64,000 nt of DNA from an uncultured Candidatus Saccharibacteria bacterium (GTDB taxonomy: Bacteria > Patescibacteriota > Minisyncoccia > Phycocordibacterales > Phycocordibacteraceae). Position numbers and translations under genes: made by a program. The notes under the pieces were generated by a model, which saw only the letters and a list, made by a program, of their open reading frames with translations, was not told the origin of the DNA and searched no databases. The DNA is taken from the NCBI GenBank assembly GCA_964469405.1, contig CAYXYP010000003.1, positions 2,573-66,572 of the forward strand, in the 5' to 3' direction. Position 1 is the first letter of the stretch; every line of letters begins with the position of its first letter. Positions 7,549-56,306 of the stretch are shown in pieces.

Positions 7549-7565
7549 GTTTTTTAATATCTTCG

Positions 7566-7584
7566 GCGGGCCCACCAGGAATCG
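7566..7584. repeat. 19-nt direct repeat of the tRNA-Trp 3' end (att-like scar)
   Basis: GCGGGCCCACCAGGAATCG occurs at 7566-7584 and again at 7681-7699. The second copy is the T-arm/acceptor 3' strand of the minus-strand tRNA-Trp. Confidence 0.7.
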
Positions 7585-7681
7585 CCTCTCGCCTTGCTAG
7601 GCTCGAGACCTTCGCACCCTCCTCGGGTGCTGCGGCCCGCGGTCCGATTCCTGTTGGACTCCTCGCTCACTATGTTCGCTG

Positions 7682-10715: not shown

Positions 10716-10805
10716 GTAAGGACCTCCTTTTATTGTAGGTAGTTTAATTACTTCATCCGCGTTCTAGTATATCATCGATTATATTTATGTCAAATTTCTT
10801 TTCTG

Positions 10806-10817
10806 GTGCCGGGGGAG
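10806..10817. repeat. 12-nt direct repeat of the tRNA-Leu 3' end
   Basis: GTGCCGGGGGAG occurs at 10806-10817 and at 10968-10979 (the tRNA-Leu 3' acceptor strand, reverse strand), about 150 bp apart. Confidence 0.6.
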
Positions 10818-10968
10818 GCTCGGTCACGTTTTACTAATTCGCTTCGCTCATACGTATACGCGACCCCGGTTCGGCGTCGCTCCGCGACATGCCTGTACCT
10901 TTCGAGTCTCTCATGCATGACGCGCAGGCGTCATGCTCCCCCGACACATATTCGCTCTGCTCAATCTG

Positions 10969-11050
10969 TGCCGGGGGAGAGACTCGAACTCTCATGTCTT
11001 GCGACGACGGGTTTTGAATCCGTTGCGTCTACCAATTCCGCCACCCCGGC
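10969..11050 (-). tRNA. tRNA-Leu (anticodon CAA)
   Basis: The reverse complement is GCCGGGGTGGCGGAATTGGTAGACGCAACGGATTCAAAACCCGTCGTCGCAAGACATGAGAGTTCGAGTCTCTCCCCCGGCA. It has a long variable arm and is close to E. coli tRNA-Leu(CAA). Confidence 0.9.
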
Positions 11051-25459: not shown

Positions 25460-25533
25460 TGGGGGATCGTCTAAAGGTAGGACAGCGCCCTTTGAAGGCG
25501 TGAATCGGGGTTCGATTCCCTGTCCCCCAGCCA
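25460..25533 (+). tRNA. tRNA-Gln (anticodon TTG) with encoded CCA
   Basis: Acceptor TGGGGGA/TCCCCCA, anticodon arm GCGCC-CTTTGAA-GGCGT (UUG), T-arm CGGGG-TTCGATT-CCCTG, discriminator G, CCA. Confidence 0.8.
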
Positions 25534-25564
25534 TGAGCAGGAGTTCAGTGCGAGGCGATTCCAA

Positions 25565-25575
25565 GTCCCCCAGCC
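25565..25575. repeat. 11-nt direct repeat of the tRNA-Gln 3' end
   Basis: GTCCCCCAGCC at 25522-25532 (tRNA 3' end) and again at 25565-25575. Confidence 0.5.
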
Positions 25576-25708
25576 GAATTGAAGTTTTTTCCAAGCGAAG
25601 CGATCCATTAGAAAAAAGCTTCAATTCGCTTCGCAGTGCCGTCGCAGGCACAAGAAGGTATTGAAGTATTATTGAGGCAGGTTCGGACTCTGAGGAGGGT
25701 CTAGACGT

Positions 25709-50489: not shown

Positions 50490-51452
50490 ATGCAAACCAT
50501 TGTCGGTGTGCTTAGAGGAGGGCCATCTTGCGAGCATGAAGTTTCGCTGAAAACAGGTGCCGCAATTCTTGCGAATCTTCCAAGCGATCGATACGTTGCT
50601 CGCGATATTTATATTGATAAAAGTGGTCAGTGGCATGAGCGCGGCAAACCGACTTCTCCCGAGCGTGTATTGCGACAGATTGATGTCGCGCTCATCGGGC
50701 TCCATGGCGAATACGGAGAAGATGGGGAAGTGCAGAGACTCCTCGAATTGTTTGGTGTCCCTTATGCTGGCTCGGATTCTTTCGGTTCTTATCTTGCGAT
50801 GCATAAGCTCATGGCGAAGACTCGTGCGAAAGAGGCGGGATTACTCACGCCGGAGTTCCGTCATATTGAGCGCGTTGAGGATAGTGAGGCTATAGTGCGC
50901 GATGTCATCCAAAATTTTTCCCAGCCCGTTATCGTGAAGCCTGTTGGTTGGGGTTCTTCCGTAGGCGTCTCGGTTGTCGGCGGCTACGTCCCAGTGCTTG
51001 CCGCTGTTGAAGAGCTTTTTGCTAAAGGTGCATCGAATGTCCTCATCGAGGAATATATTCGCGGGAAGGAAGCAACCGTTGGTGTTGTTGAAGGTCTGCG
51101 AGGCGAGGCGCTGTATGCACTCCCTTCGGTCGAGGTTATTCCGCCTGAAGGAGATATTCTATCTTACGGCGCTAAGTATTCAGGCAAAATGCGTCAAGCC
51201 TGTCCCGGCCATTTTTCCCGTGTAGCTGCGGAGGAATTGCAGCGTGCTGCAAAGGTTATGCATCGTGCTTTGGGACTGCGCCACTATTCGCGTAGCGATT
51301 TTATCGTTTCCCCAAAGGGTGTGTATTATTTAGAGACTAATACGCTCCCGGGACTTATGAAAGAGTCGCTTATGCCGAGGTCTCTCTCAGCTGTCGGTGT
51401 CCCGTTTCCCGACTTCTTAGGGCATCTGGTCAATTTGGCGCGCTCGCGCTAA
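50490..51452 (+). CDS. ddl: D-alanine--D-alanine ligase
   Basis: VLRGGPSCEHEVSLKTG (the GGxSxEHEVSL motif) and an ATP-grasp C-terminal half. Confidence 0.9.
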   Translation: MQTIVGVLRGGPSCEHEVSLKTGAAILANLPSDRYVARDIYIDKSGQWHERGKPTSPERVLRQIDVALIGLHGEYGEDGEVQRLLELFGVPYAGSDSFGSYLAMHKLMAKTRAKEAGLLTPEFRHIERVEDSEAIVRDVIQNFSQPVIVKPVGWGSSVGVSVVGGYVPVLAAVEELFAKGASNVLIEEYIRGKEATVGVVEGLRGEALYALPSVEVIPPEGDILSYGAKYSGKMRQACPGHFSRVAAEELQRAAKVMHRALGLRHYSRSDFIVSPKGVYYLETNTLPGLMKESLMPRSLSAVGVPFPDFLGHLVNLARSR

Positions 51453-51551
51453 AATCGATAGAAGGGCACTCATATCGATTTCTTGCACCGATATGATATC
51501 CTCGCACGGAGGGAAAGAAATCGAGGGTCCTCGTTTCTCTCGTCCTCGCTC

Positions 51552-51624
51552 GGGCCCATAGCTCAATCGGTAGAGCGCCTCATTTGCAATGAGGAGGTAG
51601 CCGGTTCGAAACCGGCTGGGTCCA
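51552..51624 (+). tRNA. tRNA-Cys (anticodon GCA)
   Basis: GGGCCCATAGCTCAATCGGTAGAGCGCCTCATTTGCAATGAGGAGGTAGCCGGTTCGAAACCGGCTGGGTCCA. Anticodon loop TTTGCAA. Acceptor stem has one G-U pair. Confidence 0.85.
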
Positions 51625-51669
51625 CACACAGTAAAAAACCTCCAGCAGTGGAGGTTTTTTACTGTGTGT
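51625..51669. terminator. Long A/T-flanked hairpin (bidirectional terminator) after tRNA-Cys
   Basis: CACACAGTAAAAAACCTCCAGCAGTGGAGGTTTTTTACTGTGTG, an extended palindrome. Confidence 0.7.
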
Positions 51670-51675
51670 GGAAAG

Positions 51676-51766
51676 CGGAGTCATGTTTTCGCGCTAGCAA
51701 AAACAGACGAGCTAGGGTCGTGCAATTTTGAGCACGACGGTGCTCACAATATCCCTGACCACAAAA
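51676..51766 (+). repeat. tRNA-linked repeat element, copy A (ends ...CCCTGACCACAAAATT)
   Basis: Aligns over about 90 nt with 53398-53482 and partly with 55745-55822. Shared blocks are ATGTTTT, GCAAAAAC/GACAAAAC, GGGTCGTG, AATTTTGAG, GACG(A/G)CG and TGACCACAA. Confidence 0.6.
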
Positions 51767-53152
51767 TTACCAACCAAAGAGTTTGCTGACGTCTTCAGGT
51801 TGTTCCCGTTTCCGAGCGATTTTGAGCTCCCCGTTGCTTGCGATAAGTTTTACCGGGCTTGAAAGCAGACAGTGGTGCGATGCGAGAGGGTCCTGGTATG
51901 CGCCAGTGTCAAGGACTGCTATATACAGTTCCTCAAGTTGTTTAATATCAGGAAGGGGAATATAGGTACCGCCAGCAGAGTAAATGTCGTCACTGTCGCA
52001 CGAAGAGCCAGCAAGCCAGCATTTCTTCAGTTTCCGGCTATGCATCGCATTGACGGGTACGATATGCCAACGTTGATGAATCGCCCATGTGTCGATGAGG
52101 TCGTTCATAAAACTTCCATCGATGACATACCAGCTTCTGCCCGACTTCATCTCGATGTTTTTTTCGGCAAGAATTTTATATATAGTTATCTGTGCCGGGG
52201 CAGCAACGTACCTACCCCACTCGATGATGATATTCGGGTGCTTGACCTCCCATTTGTCCGAATAGGCTTTAGATGTTTTTATGATTCGCTGGATTAATGT
52301 TTTGGCGGTGTAGAATCGCTTTTTTTCATAGGGGATGCCTGCGCCTCCTCCGATATCAAGTGTATCGAGGCCCGGGTTCTTTTTCCGCAACTCTTTGTAT
52401 AGCCAGAGCCCGCGCTTGAGAGCTGTAAGGATGCCGTTGACTGATTCAATCTGGCTTGAGACGTGATAATGGAGGATAGAAAGATTTCGTACTTTGCCCA
52501 GTTCCAGGAGTTCTTCCTCAGTGAATCCAAATCGATTGAATTTTTTATCCCAATGGCCATCAATTTTGACGTTCAGACTTACACGGATGCCAACGGGCCC
52601 GCTGAATTTCTTCATGCGCTCAAGCTCGTTGTAGTCTTCAATGATTGGTATAACGTGGAGTCCTTTCCCGCGGAGTTCTTCTATGAGATCCATATACTGT
52701 GGAGTTTTAGGCCCGTTGCAGGTAACACGAATTTTCATGTTGAAATGCTCTTTTTCAATCATGCGTTTTACGATATATAGCTCGTTTGCGCTTGAGACGT
52801 CGAGATTCGCACCTTCAGCGACTGCCGGAAGAACGTATTCCCGGTTTTGGTTAACTTTCATTGGATAGTGATATTGGAACTTCCCTTTATATTCGAGAAT
52901 TTTTATATAGGCATTGAAAGTGTCAATGAGATCACGCACTCGATTCTCAATGATGGTAGGGAAGACTATCTCAGCCGAGGTGCCGTATTTTTTTACTATA
53001 TCGTAGATGTTGTATTGGTAGTTTCCTTCACGGACAATAAGTTCACCATCAGAATTAACATCAAACTGCCCGGTATTGAATTCTTCAATACCGAGTTTCC
53101 AAAAACGTCTGAATCCGTTTTTATGGGTGGAATTTTTTTTTGATTTGAACAT
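51767..53152 (-). CDS. PLP-dependent decarboxylase, fold type III (arginine/ornithine/DAP decarboxylase family; arginine decarboxylase-like)
   Basis: YPMKVNQNREYVLPAVAEGANLDVSSANEL (PLP-binding region, Y-x-K-x-N) and GSSCDSDD near the C-terminus. Confidence 0.7.
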   Translation of the reverse strand: MFKSKKNSTHKNGFRRFWKLGIEEFNTGQFDVNSDGELIVREGNYQYNIYDIVKKYGTSAEIVFPTIIENRVRDLIDTFNAYIKILEYKGKFQYHYPMKVNQNREYVLPAVAEGANLDVSSANELYIVKRMIEKEHFNMKIRVTCNGPKTPQYMDLIEELRGKGLHVIPIIEDYNELERMKKFSGPVGIRVSLNVKIDGHWDKKFNRFGFTEEELLELGKVRNLSILHYHVSSQIESVNGILTALKRGLWLYKELRKKNPGLDTLDIGGGAGIPYEKKRFYTAKTLIQRIIKTSKAYSDKWEVKHPNIIIEWGRYVAAPAQITIYKILAEKNIEMKSGRSWYVIDGSFMNDLIDTWAIHQRWHIVPVNAMHSRKLKKCWLAGSSCDSDDIYSAGGTYIPLPDIKQLEELYIAVLDTGAYQDPLASHHCLLSSPVKLIASNGELKIARKREQPEDVSKLFGW

Positions 53153-53279
53153 TGGTATGGTGGGGATTGTAGCACCAAGTGGCGTAAAAAAGTCTATAAA
53201 CTACTTTTAATCGAACATGGCGAGATACTCGTAATGTATATGGGAATCCGACCTTGCATCTGATATGGTAATCGTGTCC

Positions 53280-53353
53280 GCGCTCTTAGCTCAGTTGGTT
53301 AGAGCGTCCGCCTCACACGCGGAAGGTCGCAAGTTCGAATCTTGCAGAGCGCA
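53280..53353 (+). tRNA. tRNA-Val (anticodon CAC). Coordinates are +/-1 because of a display/ORF-track offset in this region.
   Basis: GCGCTCTTAGCTCAGTTGGTTAGAGCGTCCGCCTCACACGCGGAAGGTCGCAAGTTCGAATCTTGCAGAGCGCA. The canonical form was reconstructed using the ORF-track translations, which imply one C at positions I read as CC/missing C at two line breaks. Confidence 0.7.
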
Positions 53354-53397
53354 CAAGCAAGCAAAAGCAAACGGCTTTGCTTGTTTGTGCGCGTCGG

Positions 53398-53482
53398 AAC
53401 GATGTTTTGTCAGCAGACAAAACCGCGAGGCTGGGTCGTGAAAATTTGTGAGTGACGACGAGCAAATTATTCTTGACCACAA
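53398..53482 (+). repeat. tRNA-linked repeat element, copy B (ends ...CTTGACCACAAGGG)
   Basis: Same element as 51676-51766. It lies about 45 nt downstream of tRNA-Val, after an A-rich hairpin (GCACAAGCAAGCAAAAGCAAACGGCTTTGCTTGTTTGTGC). Confidence 0.6.
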
Positions 53483-53634
53483 GGGAGGCGTTTTGTGTCG
53501 GGCCGCCGTATGCCGGTAGTATCCAGTAGGTGATTGCGCTCAATCACGCTCGTAGCACGTATGTAACATGAAATCGGGGTGTGTTCGAAGCGATTGCTTC
53601 TTACACACCCCGATGTAAATCAATACAATATAGA

Positions 53635-53910
53635 TTATCGAGACTTTCTCTCATGAGGGCCGTACGTCCCATCCGAAGTTCTCATTTCTAGGGTTCCTTC
53701 GAGGTGGTGTCCTCCTTTTGCGTACACATTCTTTCCACAAGTTGTACAGGTAATCATATGCACTTTATCGCATGCCTCATCGTATACCAGAGTGGTCCCG
53801 AGTATTTGGGATTTGCATTTAGGACACAGTCCGGTCGTTTGATAGAAAAACCAATCTTCATCGAGAAGTCCGATACTTTCTCGCATGAGATCTGGTGGAA
53901 TGTTTTCCAT
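53635..53910 (-). CDS. Hypothetical zinc-ribbon protein (CxxC...CxxC)
   Basis: GLCPKCKS...ITCTTCGKNV forms a 4-Cys zinc-ribbon arrangement. 91 aa. Confidence 0.45.
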   Translation of the reverse strand: MENIPPDLMRESIGLLDEDWFFYQTTGLCPKCKSQILGTTLVYDEACDKVHMITCTTCGKNVYAKGGHHLEGTLEMRTSDGTYGPHERKSR

Positions 53911-54038
53911 GTGGAGCCCTCCTCTTCCTCGAATGGTAAGTTGATATAAGCACTCTATCTTCTATCTGATGACAATATATAGCACATTGATGAATTTCCT
54001 CAAGGGAGTTTTGATTGTTTGCTATACTCTCCACCACT

Positions 54039-55337
54039 ATGAGATCAAACATTGTTCATCCAGGAGCCAATAAGCTCCGATACGAAATACGAGAGATCGT
54101 CACGGTTGCGAAGCGAGTCGCGCTCTCGGGTATACCGATTGTGTGGGAAAATATCGGTGATCCTGTTGCCAAGGGGGAAGTGCCTCCTGAGTGGATGAAG
54201 AAAATAATCAAGGATACCCTCAAGGAGGATATGAGCTTCGCCTACTCACCAACCAAGGGTCTCGATGAGACTCGTGTTTACATCGCACGGGAACGAAACT
54301 TGGAGGGAGGTATACAGATAACTCCCGACGACATACTGTTCTTCAACGGTCTCGGAGATGGTATTTCCCACCTCTACCGAAACCTGAATCCCCAGGCGCG
54401 GATACTGGGTCCTGATCCTGCTTATCCGACACATTCTTCTGCCGAAGCAGCTCATGCAAATAAGCCCCATATCACGTATCGTCTTGATCCCGAGAATGAA
54501 TGGCGACCGGATCTTGCTGATATGGAGAAAAAAATACGAACGCACAAGCATATCGTCGGTATTCTCATCGTGAATCCGGATAATCCAACCGGTTTTGTGT
54601 ACCCTCAAGAAACGATACGAGCTATCGTCGCACTTGCTAAGAAATACAAACTCTTCCTTATTTCTGATGAGATTTATTCAAATCTTGCATATGAGGGAAG
54701 TGGTATGCGCAAACTCGCTTCAGTCGTAGGTATGGTTCCTGGCATCGCCATGCGTGGAATCTCAAAGGAATTTCCATGGCCGGGCGCGCGGTGTGGATGG
54801 GTTGAGTTCTATAATCGGGATAAGGACAAAGATTTTGATCGTTACGCGCGCTCCATCATGGATGCAAAAATGCTCGAGGTATGTTCAACAACACTCCCGC
54901 AAAAAGTTTTACCGAAAGTGATGGGGGATGCACGGTACTATCCCTATCTGGCGACGCGGGCACGTCGCTACGAAGAGCGCGCAGAGTATGCACATGCAAT
55001 ACTCTCCAAAATTCCAAATATGATCGTTCATAAACCGCGCGGCGCGTTTTATATGACGTGTGTATTCCGGCAGGGATCTCTCAAGAAGTATCAAACACTT
55101 CCCGTGCGAAAGGATTTAAAAAAGTTCATTGATTTTTGTTTGACGAAGGCTTCTCCAGATAAGCGCTTCGTGTACTACCTATTGGCGTCTACGGGTGTGT
55201 GTGTCGTCCCACTCTCCTCCGGTTTCAATTCGTCCCTTCAAGGGTTCCGATTCTTGCTGTTAGAGCAAGATATCGAGCGATTTAAAAAAACTATACATAC
55301 GATAGCGAAGGCTATTTCTGATTTCAACGCGTCTTGA
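54039..55337 (+). CDS. Class I/II PLP-dependent aminotransferase (alanine aminotransferase-like)
   Basis: N-terminus IREIVTVAKRVALSGIPIVWENIGDPVAKG resembles AlaA-type aminotransferases. The PLP-lysine region GISKEFPWPGARCGW is present. Confidence 0.7.
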   Translation: MRSNIVHPGANKLRYEIREIVTVAKRVALSGIPIVWENIGDPVAKGEVPPEWMKKIIKDTLKEDMSFAYSPTKGLDETRVYIARERNLEGGIQITPDDILFFNGLGDGISHLYRNLNPQARILGPDPAYPTHSSAEAAHANKPHITYRLDPENEWRPDLADMEKKIRTHKHIVGILIVNPDNPTGFVYPQETIRAIVALAKKYKLFLISDEIYSNLAYEGSGMRKLASVVGMVPGIAMRGISKEFPWPGARCGWVEFYNRDKDKDFDRYARSIMDAKMLEVCSTTLPQKVLPKVMGDARYYPYLATRARRYEERAEYAHAILSKIPNMIVHKPRGAFYMTCVFRQGSLKKYQTLPVRKDLKKFIDFCLTKASPDKRFVYYLLASTGVCVVPLSSGFNSSLQGFRFLLLEQDIERFKKTIHTIAKAISDFNAS

Positions 55338-55340
55338 CGA

Positions 55341-55392
55341 ATTACAAAGGAGAAAGACTGATCGAGCGATCAGTCTTTCTCCTTTGTAATTC
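55341..55392 (+). terminator. Rho-independent terminator (23-bp perfect stem)
   Basis: ATTACAAAGGAGAAAGACTGATCG-AGC-GATCAGTCTTTCTCCTTTGTAAT. Confidence 0.8.
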
Positions 55393-55744
55393 GCGTCGGA
55401 ATTTTCTCATTCAGAAAATTCCGACGCACATGGTAAAATGTTCTGCGTAAAAGATTCATAAAAAGGGGTTTATATAGAAATGCCTATATAAACCCTTCGT
55501 TTGGAGAGAATAATCACAATAAGACTTGTGTTATTCTTCCTTCACTCAGGGCCTATAGTAAAGCGGTATTACGACGCCATGGCATGGCGTAAGTCGGGGT
55601 TCGAGCTTGGTAGTATAGAGTCACAAAAACAACGAGCGAAGCGACTATGTTTTTGTAGGCTCCCGATTTTCAGATCGAGTCTTCGAGATATTGAAAATCG
55701 CAGTCCCCGTAGGGGAATGCCGCGCGGGTACCCGCGGCCCCACT

Positions 55745-55822
55745 AACATGTGACCGAGAGGAGTCGGACCGCGGGCCGTAGGTTTCGAGCGACGGCGAAA
55801 GAATTATCTGTGACCACAAAAA
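55745..55822 (+). repeat. tRNA-linked repeat element, copy C (ends ...CTGTGACCACAAAAATT), with an embedded tRNA-3'-end-like fragment
   Basis: GAGCGACGGCGAAAGAATTATCTGTGACCACAAAAATT aligns with the 3' halves of copies A and B. The reverse complement of 55757-55790 (GGCCCGCGGTCCGACTCCTCTCGG) matches 7636-7660 next to tRNA-Trp. Confidence 0.5.
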
Positions 55823-55842
55823 TTAAGCTATACTTTACCCAC

Positions 55843-56244
55843 ATGCTACAAGAATTCAAACAATTTTTGCTTCGCGGGAATGTCGTTGATCTAGCGGTTG
55901 GTGTCGTAATCGGTGCTGCATTTGGTACGGTTGTGAGCGCACTCGTGTCCGATCTACTCACTCCGCTCATTGCGGCAATCGCAAAGGTGCCAGATTTTGG
56001 AGGACTCGCGATCACGCTGAATGGAAGTAAGTTTATGTACGGTCATTTTATAAACGCCGTTATTTCCTTCGTGCTGGTCGCGAGCGCCGTCTTCTTCTTT
56101 GTGGTAAAGCCGATGAACGTTCTCATCACTCGCTCACGCAGGGAGCCACCGGCAGACCCGACGACGAAGAAATGCCCAGAATGTATGAGCGAGATTCCGC
56201 TCTCCGCAAGACGGTGCATGCACTGCACCCAGGTAGTTGTCTAA
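55843..56244 (+). CDS. mscL: Large-conductance mechanosensitive channel MscL with a C-terminal zinc-ribbon-like tail
   Basis: FKQFLLRGNVVDLAVGVVIGAAFGTVVSALVSDLLTPLI is the MscL TM1 signature. The C-terminus is CPECMSEIPLSARRCMHC. Confidence 0.85.
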   Translation: MLQEFKQFLLRGNVVDLAVGVVIGAAFGTVVSALVSDLLTPLIAAIAKVPDFGGLAITLNGSKFMYGHFINAVISFVLVASAVFFFVVKPMNVLITRSRREPPADPTTKKCPECMSEIPLSARRCMHCTQVVV

Positions 56245-56254
56245 AAGATGTATA

Positions 56255-56290
56255 CAAAACAAAACCCGCTTTAAGCGGGTTTTGTTTTGT
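56255..56290. terminator. Bidirectional terminator hairpin between mscL and the SWIB gene
   Basis: CAAAACAAAACCCGCTTTAAGCGGGTTTTGTTTTG. Confidence 0.75.
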
Positions 56291-56306
56291 AAATGCTCTC
56301 TATGGT

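Follow-up and report, generated by a model that had tools for sequence, protein, structure and literature searches.

Structured repetitive extragenic elements, such as BOX in pneumococci, ERIC in enterobacteria, Correia in Neisseria and REP/REPIN, are transcribed and fold as RNA; they have flanking inverted repeats and predicted hairpins and are located where genes end, often forming part of a terminator or an RNase III site. The copies found in the 64-kb stretch of DNA analyzed here (the window) are members of a large, real and previously uncatalogued family of folded elements of ~100 nt, located just 3′ of tRNA genes in one major group of ultra-small bacteria from groundwater. Like BOX, ERIC, Correia and REP, the element is short, non-coding, multi-copy and modular. 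Unlike them, it is associated almost entirely with tRNA 3′ ends, the repeats on its flanks copy the end of the neighboring tRNA, its copies within a genome are old and divergent, and the family is conserved across a class-level lineage with compensatory changes.

Plant tRNA-snoRNA dicistrons are cited in PMC12045711. The element resembles these, the MALAT1 mascRNA and the E. coli 3′ETS-leuZ in its position directly downstream of a tRNA or tRNA-like structure, with a presumed release by tRNA-processing nucleases that for the element is putative. The plant dicistrons, mascRNA and the 3′ETS-leuZ trailer RNA are single loci or eukaryotic, and we know of none in which antisense and sense copies of the tRNA 3′ end close a conserved junction. 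As in integrase target duplication, a direct repeat runs from about T-loop position 57 through the tRNA 3′ end into the trailer; unlike that case, the "island" is only 100–200 nt long and has no integrase, one core occurs at many different tRNAs, and an inverted copy (alpha) is present too. An internal alpha complementary to a flanking target, and placed within a hairpin whose other arm holds the junction, recalls the IS200/IS605 guides, the group I intron internal guide/P1 and the group II EBS-IBS pairing. Unlike these, the element contains neither a transposase nor an intron core (a search for Rfam intron matches gave none), its complementarity spans 7–20 nt, and alpha pairs with the downstream copy as well. 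The hairpin in the spacer between tRNA and element has a GC-rich stem between an A tract and a U tract, as bidirectional intrinsic terminators do, but differs from a generic terminator in its conserved tetraloop, its fixed length and a stem that reaches into the tRNA acceptor end.

Copies of the element in the window

Covariance model R1 was built from 77 family members. An earlier note on this DNA had described three copies of a repeat, two of them behind tRNA genes. The repeat is real. Copies A and B scored as full members of one family, and all three copies were matched by the model, which also detected a fourth on the opposite strand. The copies and their neighbors are as follows.

51552..51624, plus strand: tRNA-Ala(UGC), called by ARAGORN, with an Rfam tRNA match of 70.6 bits; no encoded CCA (…GGGTCCA followed by CAC)
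51621..51672, plus strand: hairpin A, a perfect 24-bp inverted repeat, TCCACACACAGTAAAAAACCTCCA / TGGAGGTTTTTTACTGTGTGTGGA, from an inverted-repeat search
51664..51766, plus strand: element copy A, full length (R1, 90 bits, E 3e-19), with alpha / P1 5′ strand at ~51664-51671, P2 at ~51674-51713, P3 at ~51716-51760 and the tail CACAA at 51760-51764
51767-53152, minus strand: decarboxylase gene, its stop adjoining the end of copy A
53280..53353, plus strand: tRNA-Val(CAC), no encoded CCA (…GAGCGCA followed by CAA)
53347..53394, plus strand: hairpin B, in which the tRNA end and trailer GAGCGCACAAGCAAGCAAAAGCAAA pair with TTTGCTTGTTTGTGCGC, overlapping the 5′ end of the element
53383..53484, plus strand: element copy B (R1, 102 bits, E 4.5e-22)
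53498..53620, plus strand: disrupted or degenerate tRNA-Pro(CGG) homologue 3′ of copy B, from alignment with intact tRNA-Pro genes
55549..55613, plus strand: tRNA-Ala(GGC)-like 5′ portion upstream of copy C, broken off after the T-loop TTC
55715..55821, plus strand: element copy C, divergent (R1, 29.5 bits, E 4.6e-5)
10968..11050, minus strand: tRNA-Leu(CAA), upstream of the fourth copy
10818..10909, minus strand: fourth copy, divergent, class II (R1, 29.6 bits, E 4.3e-5)
10804..10822, minus strand: beta2, a direct repeat of the tRNA-Leu 3′ end (CGAGCCTCCCCCGGCACCA), immediately after the fourth copy

The first tRNA, previously taken for a tRNA-Cys, was identified as tRNA-Ala(UGC) by ARAGORN, and a G3:U70 pair can be read from its sequence. 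Hairpin A contains an A tract and a U tract; its 5′ arm starts with tRNA nt 70-73 (TCCA) and its 3′ arm ends in alpha, the 5′ strand of the element (GTGTGTGGA). The predicted junction fold is −45.1 kcal/mol at hairpin A and −31.5 kcal/mol at hairpin B. Copy A (MFE z-score −3.8) abuts the decarboxylase gene of the minus strand, as had been noticed earlier, and ends 1–3 nt short of its stop. Copy B is the most canonical in the window, with a core 89% identical to the copies in L038 and L107, which are likewise placed at Val(CAC)-Pro(CGG). When the region behind it was aligned with the intact tRNA-Pro genes found behind the element in L077, L090 and L109, the acceptor 5′ strand and D arm were seen to be kept while the remainder had diverged; the region contains a hairpin (53573-53614), and ARAGORN called no tRNA at 53498..53620.

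Copy C is not simply truncated, as had been supposed, but divergent. Its P3 arm and 3′ tail (55770-55819) are conserved, and in place of the P2 arm it has other hairpins, among them GGACCGCGGGCCG, also present in the insert after tRNA-Trp. The tRNA-Ala(GGC)-like portion upstream gave a sub-threshold Rfam tRNA match (55553-55613, 24 bits, model positions 5-66). A repeat search returned a 57-nt repeat between copies A and B at 70% identity and a 33-nt 3′ block common to all three plus-strand copies, over which copies C and B are 76% identical. The exact sequence TGACCACAA occurs three times in the 64-kb window (51756, 53474 and 55811), always on the plus strand, with ~0.5 occurrences expected by chance. 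The fourth copy lies 58 nt downstream of tRNA-Leu(CAA) and has the closing stem GAGACTCG / CGAGCCTC and the P3 apex GAGCGAAGCGA. Its beta2 has an encoded CCA, which the tRNA-Leu gene itself does not; the longest exact direct match to the tRNA-Leu 3′ end is 12 nt, as is the inverted match to the 5′ end of the element.

Fold, covariation and distribution of the family

The element is a three-way junction, with P1 as the closing helix of two long, irregular arms (P2 and P3). The sequence blocks listed in the earlier note correspond to helix strands or loops: P2 has ATGTTTT and GNCAAAAC as its strands, GGGTCGTG and TGACC form the base of P3, and GACG is the P3 loop. A further sequence, GGCTGGGTC, had been read as a copy of the tRNA-Cys acceptor strand; it does not copy the acceptor strand of tRNA-Ala, and GGGGTCG is conserved across the family whatever the upstream tRNA. 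The covariance analysis that the note proposed was run with RNAalifold on 77 copies and predicted 29 pairs, 20 of them with compensatory changes. In 150 model-aligned copies P2 and P3 were 96–98% paired, with compensatory changes in 33 of the 35 pairs tested. The covariation score was 0.486 compared to 0.161 for shuffles, none of 500 reaching 0.486, and slid controls gave 0.06–0.09. The loops AGCA and GACG are conserved, and the fold also contains two tandem G-A internal loops. Only the tRNA-sense strand accommodates a conserved G-U pair, present in 127 of 149 copies, and a GC/GU alternation (89/42), which places the element on the tRNA strand. This strand evidence is compatible with folded single-stranded DNA, in which G-T pairs are tolerated, and does not in itself prove RNA.

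The note had also called for a search beyond the window. A 29-nt pattern from the 3′ block, run on species-representative genomes, matched 108 stretches against a chance expectation of ~9. Nearly all matches were in Patescibacteria of Paceibacteria type, ~97 of the 108 belonging to Nomura-, Kaiser-, Taylor-, Zambryski-, Yonath- or Adlerbacteria or to MAGs labelled Paceibacterota. The pattern was also present in >119 metagenome contigs, the pattern search found no viral contig with the element, and Rfam 15 gave no match for it. The same ~100-nt core was found with >15 different tRNA species, and genomes contain many paralogues; in L029 the element stands behind all five tRNAs. Copies at one locus are no more alike (identity 0.652) than copies from different genomes (0.649), and the same tRNA-element-tRNA arrangements recur across genera, which points to selection that has long maintained the fold and not to a recent spread.

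The junction with the tRNA 3′ end

Of 152 model hits, 96 have a same-strand tRNA within 120 nt upstream, and a further 16 lie behind another copy. The usual start distance after a same-strand tRNA is a spacer of 38–41 nt (73 of 102 junctions), which forms a ~22-bp hairpin with a CUGC loop (68 of 102) and base pairing between an A tract and a U tract. The distance from N73 to the loop is 18–21 nt in 91 of the 102 junctions, and 88 have a run of at least four U. At the base of the hairpin, tRNA nt 70-73 and the trailer (C74 A75 …) pair with alpha, and the paired bases covary with the identity of the tRNA. Of 77 cases, 62 have alpha column 7 paired with tRNA nt 71 and 64 have column 8 paired with nt 70, compared to 38 and 35 (maximum 47) when the alpha-tRNA pairings were shuffled. 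Behind tRNA-Ala, alpha is GGA, complementary to U70, where GGG would equal the tRNA 5′ end, indicating that alpha follows pairing and not copying. The 3′ end of the element (beta2) repeats the tRNA 3′ end and trailer and is complementary to alpha (P1). Every copy of the element is in part made up of a sense and an antisense version of the 3′ end of its own tRNA. At ~20% of loci the element is followed after 3–30 nt by another tRNA and the gap contains nothing promoter-like, so transcription must pass through the element at those loci.

Possible roles of the element

The candidates offered earlier were a non-coding RNA, an att-like site and a MITE. A conserved and covarying structure, specific to one strand and linked to the 3′ ends of tRNAs, is strongly supported and favors RNA, some features fit a mobile or recombining element, and a plain prophage att scar is unsupported. 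As the best reading, we tentatively propose that the element is a transcribed, conserved RNA module of the tRNA 3′ trailer in Paceibacteria-type Patescibacteria (CPR), acting in pre-tRNA termination or processing. This proposal builds on the observed fold and strand, the tRNA link, and the complementarity of alpha to both tRNA and beta2. The tRNA promoter would drive transcription through the hairpin and into the module, and the hairpin would act as a "ruler", serving as terminator and/or site of cleavage by a double-strand endonuclease and setting a constant distance of ~20 bp between the loop and the tRNA 3′ end. After tRNA release, alpha would switch to pairing with beta2 and the junction would close into a compact autonomous fold, unable to disturb the folding of neighboring tRNAs. 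The closed fold could then be discarded or become a platform for protein binding, for which its two tandem G-A internal loops and its conserved loops, AGCA and GACG, make it a candidate. Against the trailer module, the hairpin resembles an efficient intrinsic terminator, which would keep most polymerases off the junction, and pairing of alpha with tRNA nt 70-73 needs the top of the acceptor stem to be opened. Nor does the trailer module give the conserved junction core a task, and it does not predict several signatures of insertion or recombination: direct repeats of up to 25 nt that take in non-functional trailer sequence, an empty site in L077, identical tandem units in L103 and a copy within a xer gene.

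The main rival, which we regard as rather unlikely, is a non-autonomous miniature mobile or integrative element that targets tRNA 3′ ends by base pairing, alpha being the guide complementary to the target and beta2 the target duplication. A recombinase or transposase acting in trans on folded single-stranded DNA would move it, by analogy with IS200/IS605 ends, REPINs, integron attC sites and the folded CTX phage attP; the conserved arms would be the enzyme's recognition structure, and hairpin and terminator would make insertions harmless. Consistent with this, a perfect direct repeat of ≤25 nt, covering the tRNA T-loop-to-3′-end and trailer, brackets the class II copies, whose 5′ end is an inverted copy of that repeat; class I copies have a 6–10-nt flanking repeat (CACAAG…). 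In L077, tRNA-Val runs directly into the spacer (…GCGCA, CAAGGAGGTGTTTTGTGT, tRNA-Pro), and the element is present at exactly this point in the window, in L090 and in others, but such an "empty" site would also result from deletion between direct repeats. In L103 a 144-nt unit occurs twice in tandem without a difference, in L063 two copies share an identical core and have alphas that match different tRNAs, and other copies contain nested insertions of ~55 nt or hairpin modules shuffled between arms. One copy lies within a xerC/D-like gene, in its 3′ end at GTGCACAAGAAG, which looks like a tRNA end and trailer; this copy has a matching alpha and a duplicated 27-nt coding end whose 5 differences are all synonymous; Xer-like genes, however, occur in 3 of ~220 loci, roughly chance level, and no transposase or integrase is linked to the element. 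Mobility is also opposed by the equal divergence within loci and between genomes, which gives no sign of recent bursts, by the same positions being filled across genera, by compensatory evolution, which argues for sustained selection in place, and by the lack of a viral contig with the element. Such a load on most tRNA genes would be unexpected in streamlined genomes.

It is improbable that the element is a stable, trans-acting small RNA family merely cut out by the tRNA processing machinery. RNase Z or RNase III would cut upstream and RNase P of the next tRNA downstream, the class II closing stem would imitate the tRNA acceptor and T-stem stack, and the released RNA would act elsewhere, for instance by binding a protein; such a system would be similar to mascRNA, the plant tRNA-snoRNA dicistrons or the tRNA-like ends of tmRNA. 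The autonomous, strongly conserved fold with its loops, and the many paralogues per genome, agree with this, as does the class II alpha:beta2 stem, which reproduces 10–18 nt of the T-stem and acceptor 3′ strand and is followed by the same discriminator and trailer as the tRNA; the fourth copy in the window ends …CCCCGGC-A-CCA. Against it, an RNA acting in trans could do without dozens of divergent paralogues, each fitted to its own tRNA, a variable "specificity" loop is not evident, and the hairpin loop does not covary with the P2 loop.

The region from T-loop to 3′ end of a tRNA is a classic sublocation for integrase crossover, and the direct repeats span it; we nonetheless disfavor, as very improbable, decayed prophage or genomic-island scars (attL and attR with the island mostly lost), since one core accompanies so many tRNA species and shows compensatory changes and conservation between genera, neither an integrase nor a cargo gene lies next to it, and a scar would be expected to decay, not to covary. 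The reading as a promoter or operator of the downstream gene (mscL or the next tRNA), or as mere low-complexity A-rich similarity, is refuted for practical purposes: copy C lies close to mscL, ending 22 nt short of its start codon (55843), and the P3 3′ strand contains AATTAT and AAATAT, but a consensus scan of the elements gave no promoter-like site, copy A faces the end of a convergent gene and stem covariation is not a promoter property, all in keeping with the earlier note's dismissal of a simple promoter role, and the RNAalifold pairs, the covariation test and the excess of pattern matches in one lineage tell against this reading as a whole.

Element copies in the window and their neighbours

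An exact search of the window placed TGACCACAA at 51756, 53474, and 55811, all on the plus strand, and repeat finding returned a 57-nt repeat shared by copies A and B as well as a 33-nt block common to copies A, B, and C, in agreement with the three-copy repeat proposed in the earlier note. The order described there, with a long hairpin between tRNA and repeat, was also found at the tRNA-Ala and tRNA-Val loci. The gene before copy A had been taken for tRNA-Cys; it contains a G3:U70 pair and is therefore not tRNA-Cys but tRNA-Ala(UGC). Copy A does abut a convergent PLP-decarboxylase gene, its 3′ end lying 1-3 nt short of the stop codon, and the 3′ end of copy C lies 22 nt from the start codon of mscL.

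Features of the window. Bit scores are from R1, a covariance model built from an alignment of 77 element copies.
51552-51624 (+), tRNA-Ala(UGC), upstream of copy A
51664-51766 (+), copy A, 90 bits
53280-53353 (+), tRNA-Val(CAC), upstream of copy B
53383-53484 (+), copy B, 102 bits
55549-55613 (+), interrupted tRNA-Ala(GGC)-like sequence, upstream of copy C
55715-55821 (+), copy C, 29.5 bits
10818-10909 (-), fourth copy, 29.6 bits
7681-7752 (-), tRNA-Trp, with a structured insert of ~97 nt at 7584-7680 (-) and a direct repeat at 7565-7583 (-)
25460-25533 (+), tRNA-Gln with an encoded CCA and a second copy of its T-loop-to-3′-end within 25534-25575

Copy C retains one arm of the element (P3) and the 3′ tail. 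Other hairpins make up its 5′ half; one of them, GGACCGCGGGCCG, is also present in the insert 3′ of tRNA-Trp. The tRNA-Ala(GGC)-like gene upstream of it (55549-55715, +) breaks directly after the T-loop TTC, where ~95 nt of hairpins intrude, among them a highly stable mini-hairpin motif, GCGAAGC. An acceptor 3′ strand to match could not be located in 55549-55715, where TAGGGGA (55708-55714) does not pair. A tRNA-Pro(CGG) gene follows the element in relatives, and its homologue in the window (53498-53620, +) is disrupted, keeping the acceptor 5′ strand and D arm. Beyond these, unrelated hairpins occupy ~100 nt and the loop of a T-arm-like stem is oversized. Either a pseudogene or a tRNA with sizeable insertions could explain the sequence.

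The gene content of the contig is CPR-like, and an MscL protein identical to that of the window is encoded on an 82.5-kb Hainich groundwater contig (ena:ERZ1292627 Hain_H51_01um). The mscL gene (55843-56244, +) encodes a C-terminal UPF0547 zinc-ribbon-like motif at residues 109-128, below the cut-off in Pfam, and a TATACT box ending 8 nt before its ATG (55826-55845) suggests an mRNA that is leaderless or nearly so. The gene beyond the element of tRNA-Leu is preceded by a textbook TTGACA-16/17-TATACT promoter (10770-10800, -).

A lineage-wide family with a covarying fold

To look for the element in other genomes, a 29-nt search pattern was derived from the shared 3′ block, GACGNNGNNNNNAWTATNNNTGACCACAA, for which ~9 matches are expected by chance in the 1.2e12 bases searched. 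The pattern matched 108 stretches in a collection of species-representative genomes, of which 11 are unrelated coding sequence of other phyla, a number that fits the chance expectation. The other matches are in Patescibacteria MAGs labelled Nomura-, Kaiser-, Taylor-, Zambryski-, Yonath- or Adlerbacteria, Paceibacterota, Parcubacteria, or Minisyncoccia, some bearing the generic label 'uncultured Saccharibacteria'. Among the matches listed for metagenomes, more than 119 contigs carried the pattern, other Hainich contigs included; the viral contigs searched gave no match, and a phage origin was rejected on this basis. Approximately 70 nt 5′ of each match is also conserved, giving the whole-unit consensus cTTGTGCGAGcCGGAGCgATGTTTTGcCAGCAGgCAAAACcGCGAGgCgGGGTCGcGGAAATTTTcGAGCGACGGCGAGaAAATTATCcGTGACCACAA, and a covariance model run on 97 related loci returned 167 matches, ~70 of them lacking the search pattern. 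The repeat is thus a lineage-wide family and not a local one. No known family corresponds to it in Rfam 15: at gathering thresholds the window gave tRNAs only, nothing credible except tRNAs was found in 51400-56000 at E up to 10, and eight related loci with more than 25 copies yielded no family for the element at E up to 0.01. A limited literature search found no prior description, and earlier work may exist.

The covarying structure that the earlier note had made a test of its proposal was found, on one strand. From 77 copies aligned with MAFFT, A and B among them, RNAalifold predicted two long arms totalling 29 pairs, 20 of which show compensatory changes. Across 150 model-aligned copies, 96-98% pairing was counted in helices P2 and P3, and 33 of 35 pairs have changed on both sides. 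The covariation score of 0.486 compares with 0.161 for shuffled alignments, none of 500 shuffles scoring as high, and with 0.056-0.093 for slid controls; compensatory changes exceeding controls, with G-U pairs that fit the plus strand only, are as expected of a conserved structured RNA. A third helix, P1, pairs the first 7 nt with the 7 nt after GACC (GGATTTG/CAAATCC, GGAATCG/CGATTCC, ACAAGTG/CACTTGT) and was seen in copies that had not been selected by the pattern, so that the element is a three-way junction.

Helices of the junction.
P1, closing helix
P2, base GCC/GGC, internal loop GGA/GA, and a U-rich end hairpin with a C-AGCA-G loop
P3, base GGUCG/UGACC, an A/U-rich stem, a tandem G-A loop near the top, and a GC-GACG-GC cap

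A G-U pair is conserved in 127 of 149 copies and GC alternates with GU (89 vs 42); since both features would be A-C mismatches on the opposite strand, the functional strand is the tRNA-sense strand. Variation on this fold includes a shorter variant of 78 nt with the same two hairpin types and the arms swapped, and nested insertions of ~55 nt in some copies. In five loci (L015, L038, L077 at 1085-1242, L094, and L107), otherwise canonical copies carry a ~55-nt module, …CCTAAATTTTAACGACC…GGGAGTATAAAATTGGAAGTACTCT(C)TGTGGTG, in the P3 apical loop or directly before P2, a possible nested element or optional domain. A standard K-turn at the P2 internal loop was rejected for unsuitable bulge geometry, and the motifs are named here as tandem G-A loops only.

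Attachment to tRNA 3′ ends

At most of the genome loci, the start of the element is 34-43 nt 3′ of a tRNA on the same strand, larger distances being due to tandem copies or insertions. The tRNAs before it are Lys, Arg, Val, Ala, Glu, Ile, and Leu, to which the covariance model added Gly, Pro, Cys, His, and Trp. Of 152 model matches, 96 lie within 120 nt after a tRNA and 16 after another copy, and the rest mostly follow tRNAs that ARAGORN missed or mis-ended; ~90% of interpretable copies are tRNA-linked. At one locus (L029), a copy follows every one of the five tRNAs. In about one-fifth of loci the next tRNA starts 3-30 nt after the element with no promoter between, as in Val(CAC)-element-Pro(CGG) and Lys(CUU)-element-Leu(UAG), and these positions inside tRNA operons imply that transcription would run through the element. 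At four loci (L139, L153, L196, and L225), AT-rich sequences ending …GTCCA and containing GTTCCAA(T/C) T-loop-like motifs fill the place of the tRNA without an ARAGORN call; these may be unusual or degenerate tRNA-Ala-like genes.

The spacer hairpin was characterized at 102 distinct tRNA-element junctions. It is near-perfect, with a median of 22 bp and a CUGC loop in 68 junctions, in a spacer of 38-41 nt in 73; a U run of at least four occupies its 3′ arm in 88 and an A run of at least four its 5′ arm in 76. In 91 junctions the distance from the loop to the discriminator N73 is 18-21 nt, N74 is C in 100, and tRNA nt 70-73 are all paired in the minimum-free-energy fold of the hairpin in 89. By its GC-rich stem-loop followed by a U tract, the hairpin has the form of a candidate intrinsic terminator; the hairpins of copies A and B fall outside the stem and loop limits of a simple terminator scan and were therefore not listed by it. 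Perfect, very long palindromes with arms of 27, 15, and 19 bp were observed at the window gene ends 55338-55393, 55393-55427, and 56253-56291, respectively, apparently as bidirectional terminators; none has the CUGC loop of the hairpins linking tRNA and element. Kissing between the CUGC loop and GCAG of the P2 loop was rejected, as both are conserved with no covariation, and the mean longest complementarity was 3.34 observed vs 3.42 shuffled.

The 5′ strand of the element, alpha, is the partner of tRNA nt 70-73 and covaries with tRNA identity, reading GTGGA after Ala, GTGAC after Glu, GTGCG after Lys, Val, and Ile, and GTGCC or GTGCT after Arg. Of 77 cases, 62 have column 7 of alpha paired with tRNA nt 71 and 64 have column 8 paired with nt 70, compared to 38 and 35 when shuffled (maximum 47). 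After tRNA-Ala, alpha contains GGA, complementary to U70, rather than GGG, the copy of the tRNA 5′ end, indicating that alpha follows pairing and not identity. The element 3′ end, …GACC-A-CAAG, repeats C72-A73 of the tRNA and its trailer. P1 is thus the pairing of alpha with this downstream copy (beta2) of the sequence (beta1) that can also be its partner upstream. The element resembles two kinds of known feature, structured repetitive elements and RNAs linked to tRNAs. Its unusual trait is a closing helix built from sense and antisense copies of the 3′ end of the adjoining tRNA.

This relationship is extended in copies of a second type (class II), where a perfect direct repeat of up to 25 nt follows the element 3′ boundary; it starts at the T-loop (~57) and continues past the tRNA 3′ end into trailer sequence. 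Over 10-18 nt, the reverse complement of this repeat forms the element 5′ end. A tRNA-like structure processed as a tRNA, of the tmRNA or mascRNA type, would be expected to have a closing stem imitating the acceptor and T stems, with a discriminator and trailer or CCA; class II copies have such a 10-18-nt mimic, and copies A and B, of class I, do not. The fourth copy is of class II: its tRNA-Leu ends …TCTCCCCCGGCA/CAG and …CCTCCCCCGGCA-CCA stands after the element, the copy terminating in A-CCA. At tRNA-Trp and tRNA-Gln of the window, a short insert is likewise followed by a direct repeat of the tRNA's own T-loop-to-3′-end, led by GAGGCGATTCC. For tRNA-Trp this repeat is 19 nt, GATTCCTGGTGGGCCCGC, led by GAGGC, and model R1 detected nothing in the insert (7584-7680). 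For tRNA-Gln the second copy, GAGGCGATTCCAAGTCCCCCAGCC, is imperfect, lies ~21 nt downstream, and is followed by a long GCGAAGC-containing hairpin at 25580-25632. Given these own-end repeats, the phenomenon is wider than the subfamily of the earlier note.

RNA module, mobile element, and other readings

The analysis establishes the fold and its strand, conservation across the lineage, attachment to tRNA 3′ ends, and the three-way relationship of beta1, alpha, and beta2. Our leading interpretation, tentative and at somewhat less than even confidence, is that the element is an RNA-level module of the tRNA trailer. It is favored by the compensatory evolution, the operon-internal positions, and the measured-looking hairpin: sustained compensatory evolution in place within streamlined genomes implies function, and the CUGC tetraloop, the fixed stem length, and the burial of N73 and C74 in a duplex look like a measured processing or termination device. 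In such a module alpha would switch partner from beta1 to beta2, a nuclease would take part in processing the trailer, and the junction core would presumably have a role of its own.

The main rival, possible but on balance unlikely, is a miniature element mobilised in trans and targeted by base pairing, acting as folded single-stranded DNA. It explains better than an RNA module the direct repeats and three further observations. First, locus L077 (536-570) is an orthologous empty site to window 53476-53500, reading tRNA-Val …GCGCA/CAAGGAGGTGTTTTGTGT/tRNA-Pro with an 18-nt spacer, while the window, L090, and others carry hairpin and element exactly at that junction, resuming …GACCA/CAAGGAGG…. 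Second, tandem units occur, L103 having two identical units of 144 nt; L063 has two copies with the same core and alphas matching different tRNAs. Third, in L071 (3160-3345) the 3′ end of a gene for a xerC/D-like tyrosine recombinase contains a canonical copy, at GTGCACAAGAAG, a look-alike of a tRNA end and trailer. The last 27 nt of this gene are duplicated on both sides of the element, both encode HKKFHSRK-stop, and all five differences between them are synonymous, indicating that both duplicates evolved under coding constraint.

A mobile element explains the age, divergence, and positional conservation of the copies worse than an RNA module does. Recent mobility is opposed by copies within a locus being no more alike than those between genomes (identity 0.652 vs 0.649), and by nearest neighbours falling on the same tRNA only slightly above chance (14 of 88 vs 6.2 expected), a weak orthology signal. 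No recombinase is linked either, since tyrosine-recombinase (Xer-like) signatures occur in 3 of ~220 loci, about chance level, and only one adjoins an element. A MITE would be expected to have terminal inverted repeats and a short target-site duplication. Alpha and beta2 form inverted repeats around the core and direct repeats of 6-25 nt flank it, but the right-hand 'TIR' is the direct repeat itself and the repeat length varies. The many near-identical copies of a MITE, scattered over intergenic sites, were not found, given the identities above and the ~90% tRNA linkage. As in att sites, the tRNA 3′ portion is directly repeated in class II copies and at the window tRNA-Leu, tRNA-Trp, and tRNA-Gln loci; the inserts are 30-200 nt, and no adjoining integrase with cargo was found among the ~220 loci. 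The RNA-module and mobile readings may both be partly true, for example in a domesticated mobile module.

A bolder proposal, which we consider quite unlikely, is a self-propagating module that picks its sites by base pairing, or else a cis-acting RNA device that replaces protein in setting tRNA 3′ ends. If self-propagating, the module would be guided by alpha to the 3′ end of a tRNA gene or to a similar sequence, for example that at the xer 3′ end, and would restore the end of its target on insertion; such a guided, transposase-less (trans-mobilised) insertion system would have spread to most tRNA genes across a whole bacterial class. That the element is a trans-acting small RNA borrowing tRNA processing appears improbable. 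The evidence in effect excludes an island scar, a promoter role, or a chance similarity; for promoters, a consensus scan gave no promoter-like site in the elements, and the P3 3′ strand, inspected by hand, lacks sigma-70 geometry.

Several RNA classes were also rejected. A group I or II intron, which would have a catalytic core (P3-P9 or domains I-VI), had no Rfam match, the element being ~100-140 nt with two arms. A T-box or tRNA-sensing leader had no Rfam match in 51400-56000 and no consistent downstream gene, and the partner of alpha is the genomic trailer, not the mature CCA end. An HDV-like, hatchet, or other self-cleaving ribozyme appears unlikely, with no Rfam match and no diagnostic core. 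5S rRNA, SRP RNA, tmRNA, box C/D and H/ACA RNAs, and TIGR arrays were set aside by motifs, copy number, unit size, or lack of an Rfam match. The TIGR-Tas arrays have 36-nt units, unlike the element (PMC12045711).

If the element is an RNA module, it would represent an unrecognised step in termination or 3′-end maturation of CPR tRNAs; if mobile, it would illustrate in compact form how base pairing can select a target at tRNA genes. Paceibacteria rank with the most abundant bacteria of groundwater and have some of the smallest genomes known; CPR tRNA genes are mostly without an encoded CCA. These organisms appear to spend 100-200 nt of conserved folded sequence on a large share of their tRNA genes. 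On either reading, the element is a new feature for annotators to mask or label, and it accounts for tRNA finders missing or mis-ending some tRNA genes in Paceibacteria genomes. In a sister assembly (L002, 1667-1765), an N run lies exactly at the region of the tRNA-Ala-like gene and copy C; an apparent extra unit there was rejected as a variant, being a scaffold gap of Ns, and its position suggests that element repeats break assemblies.
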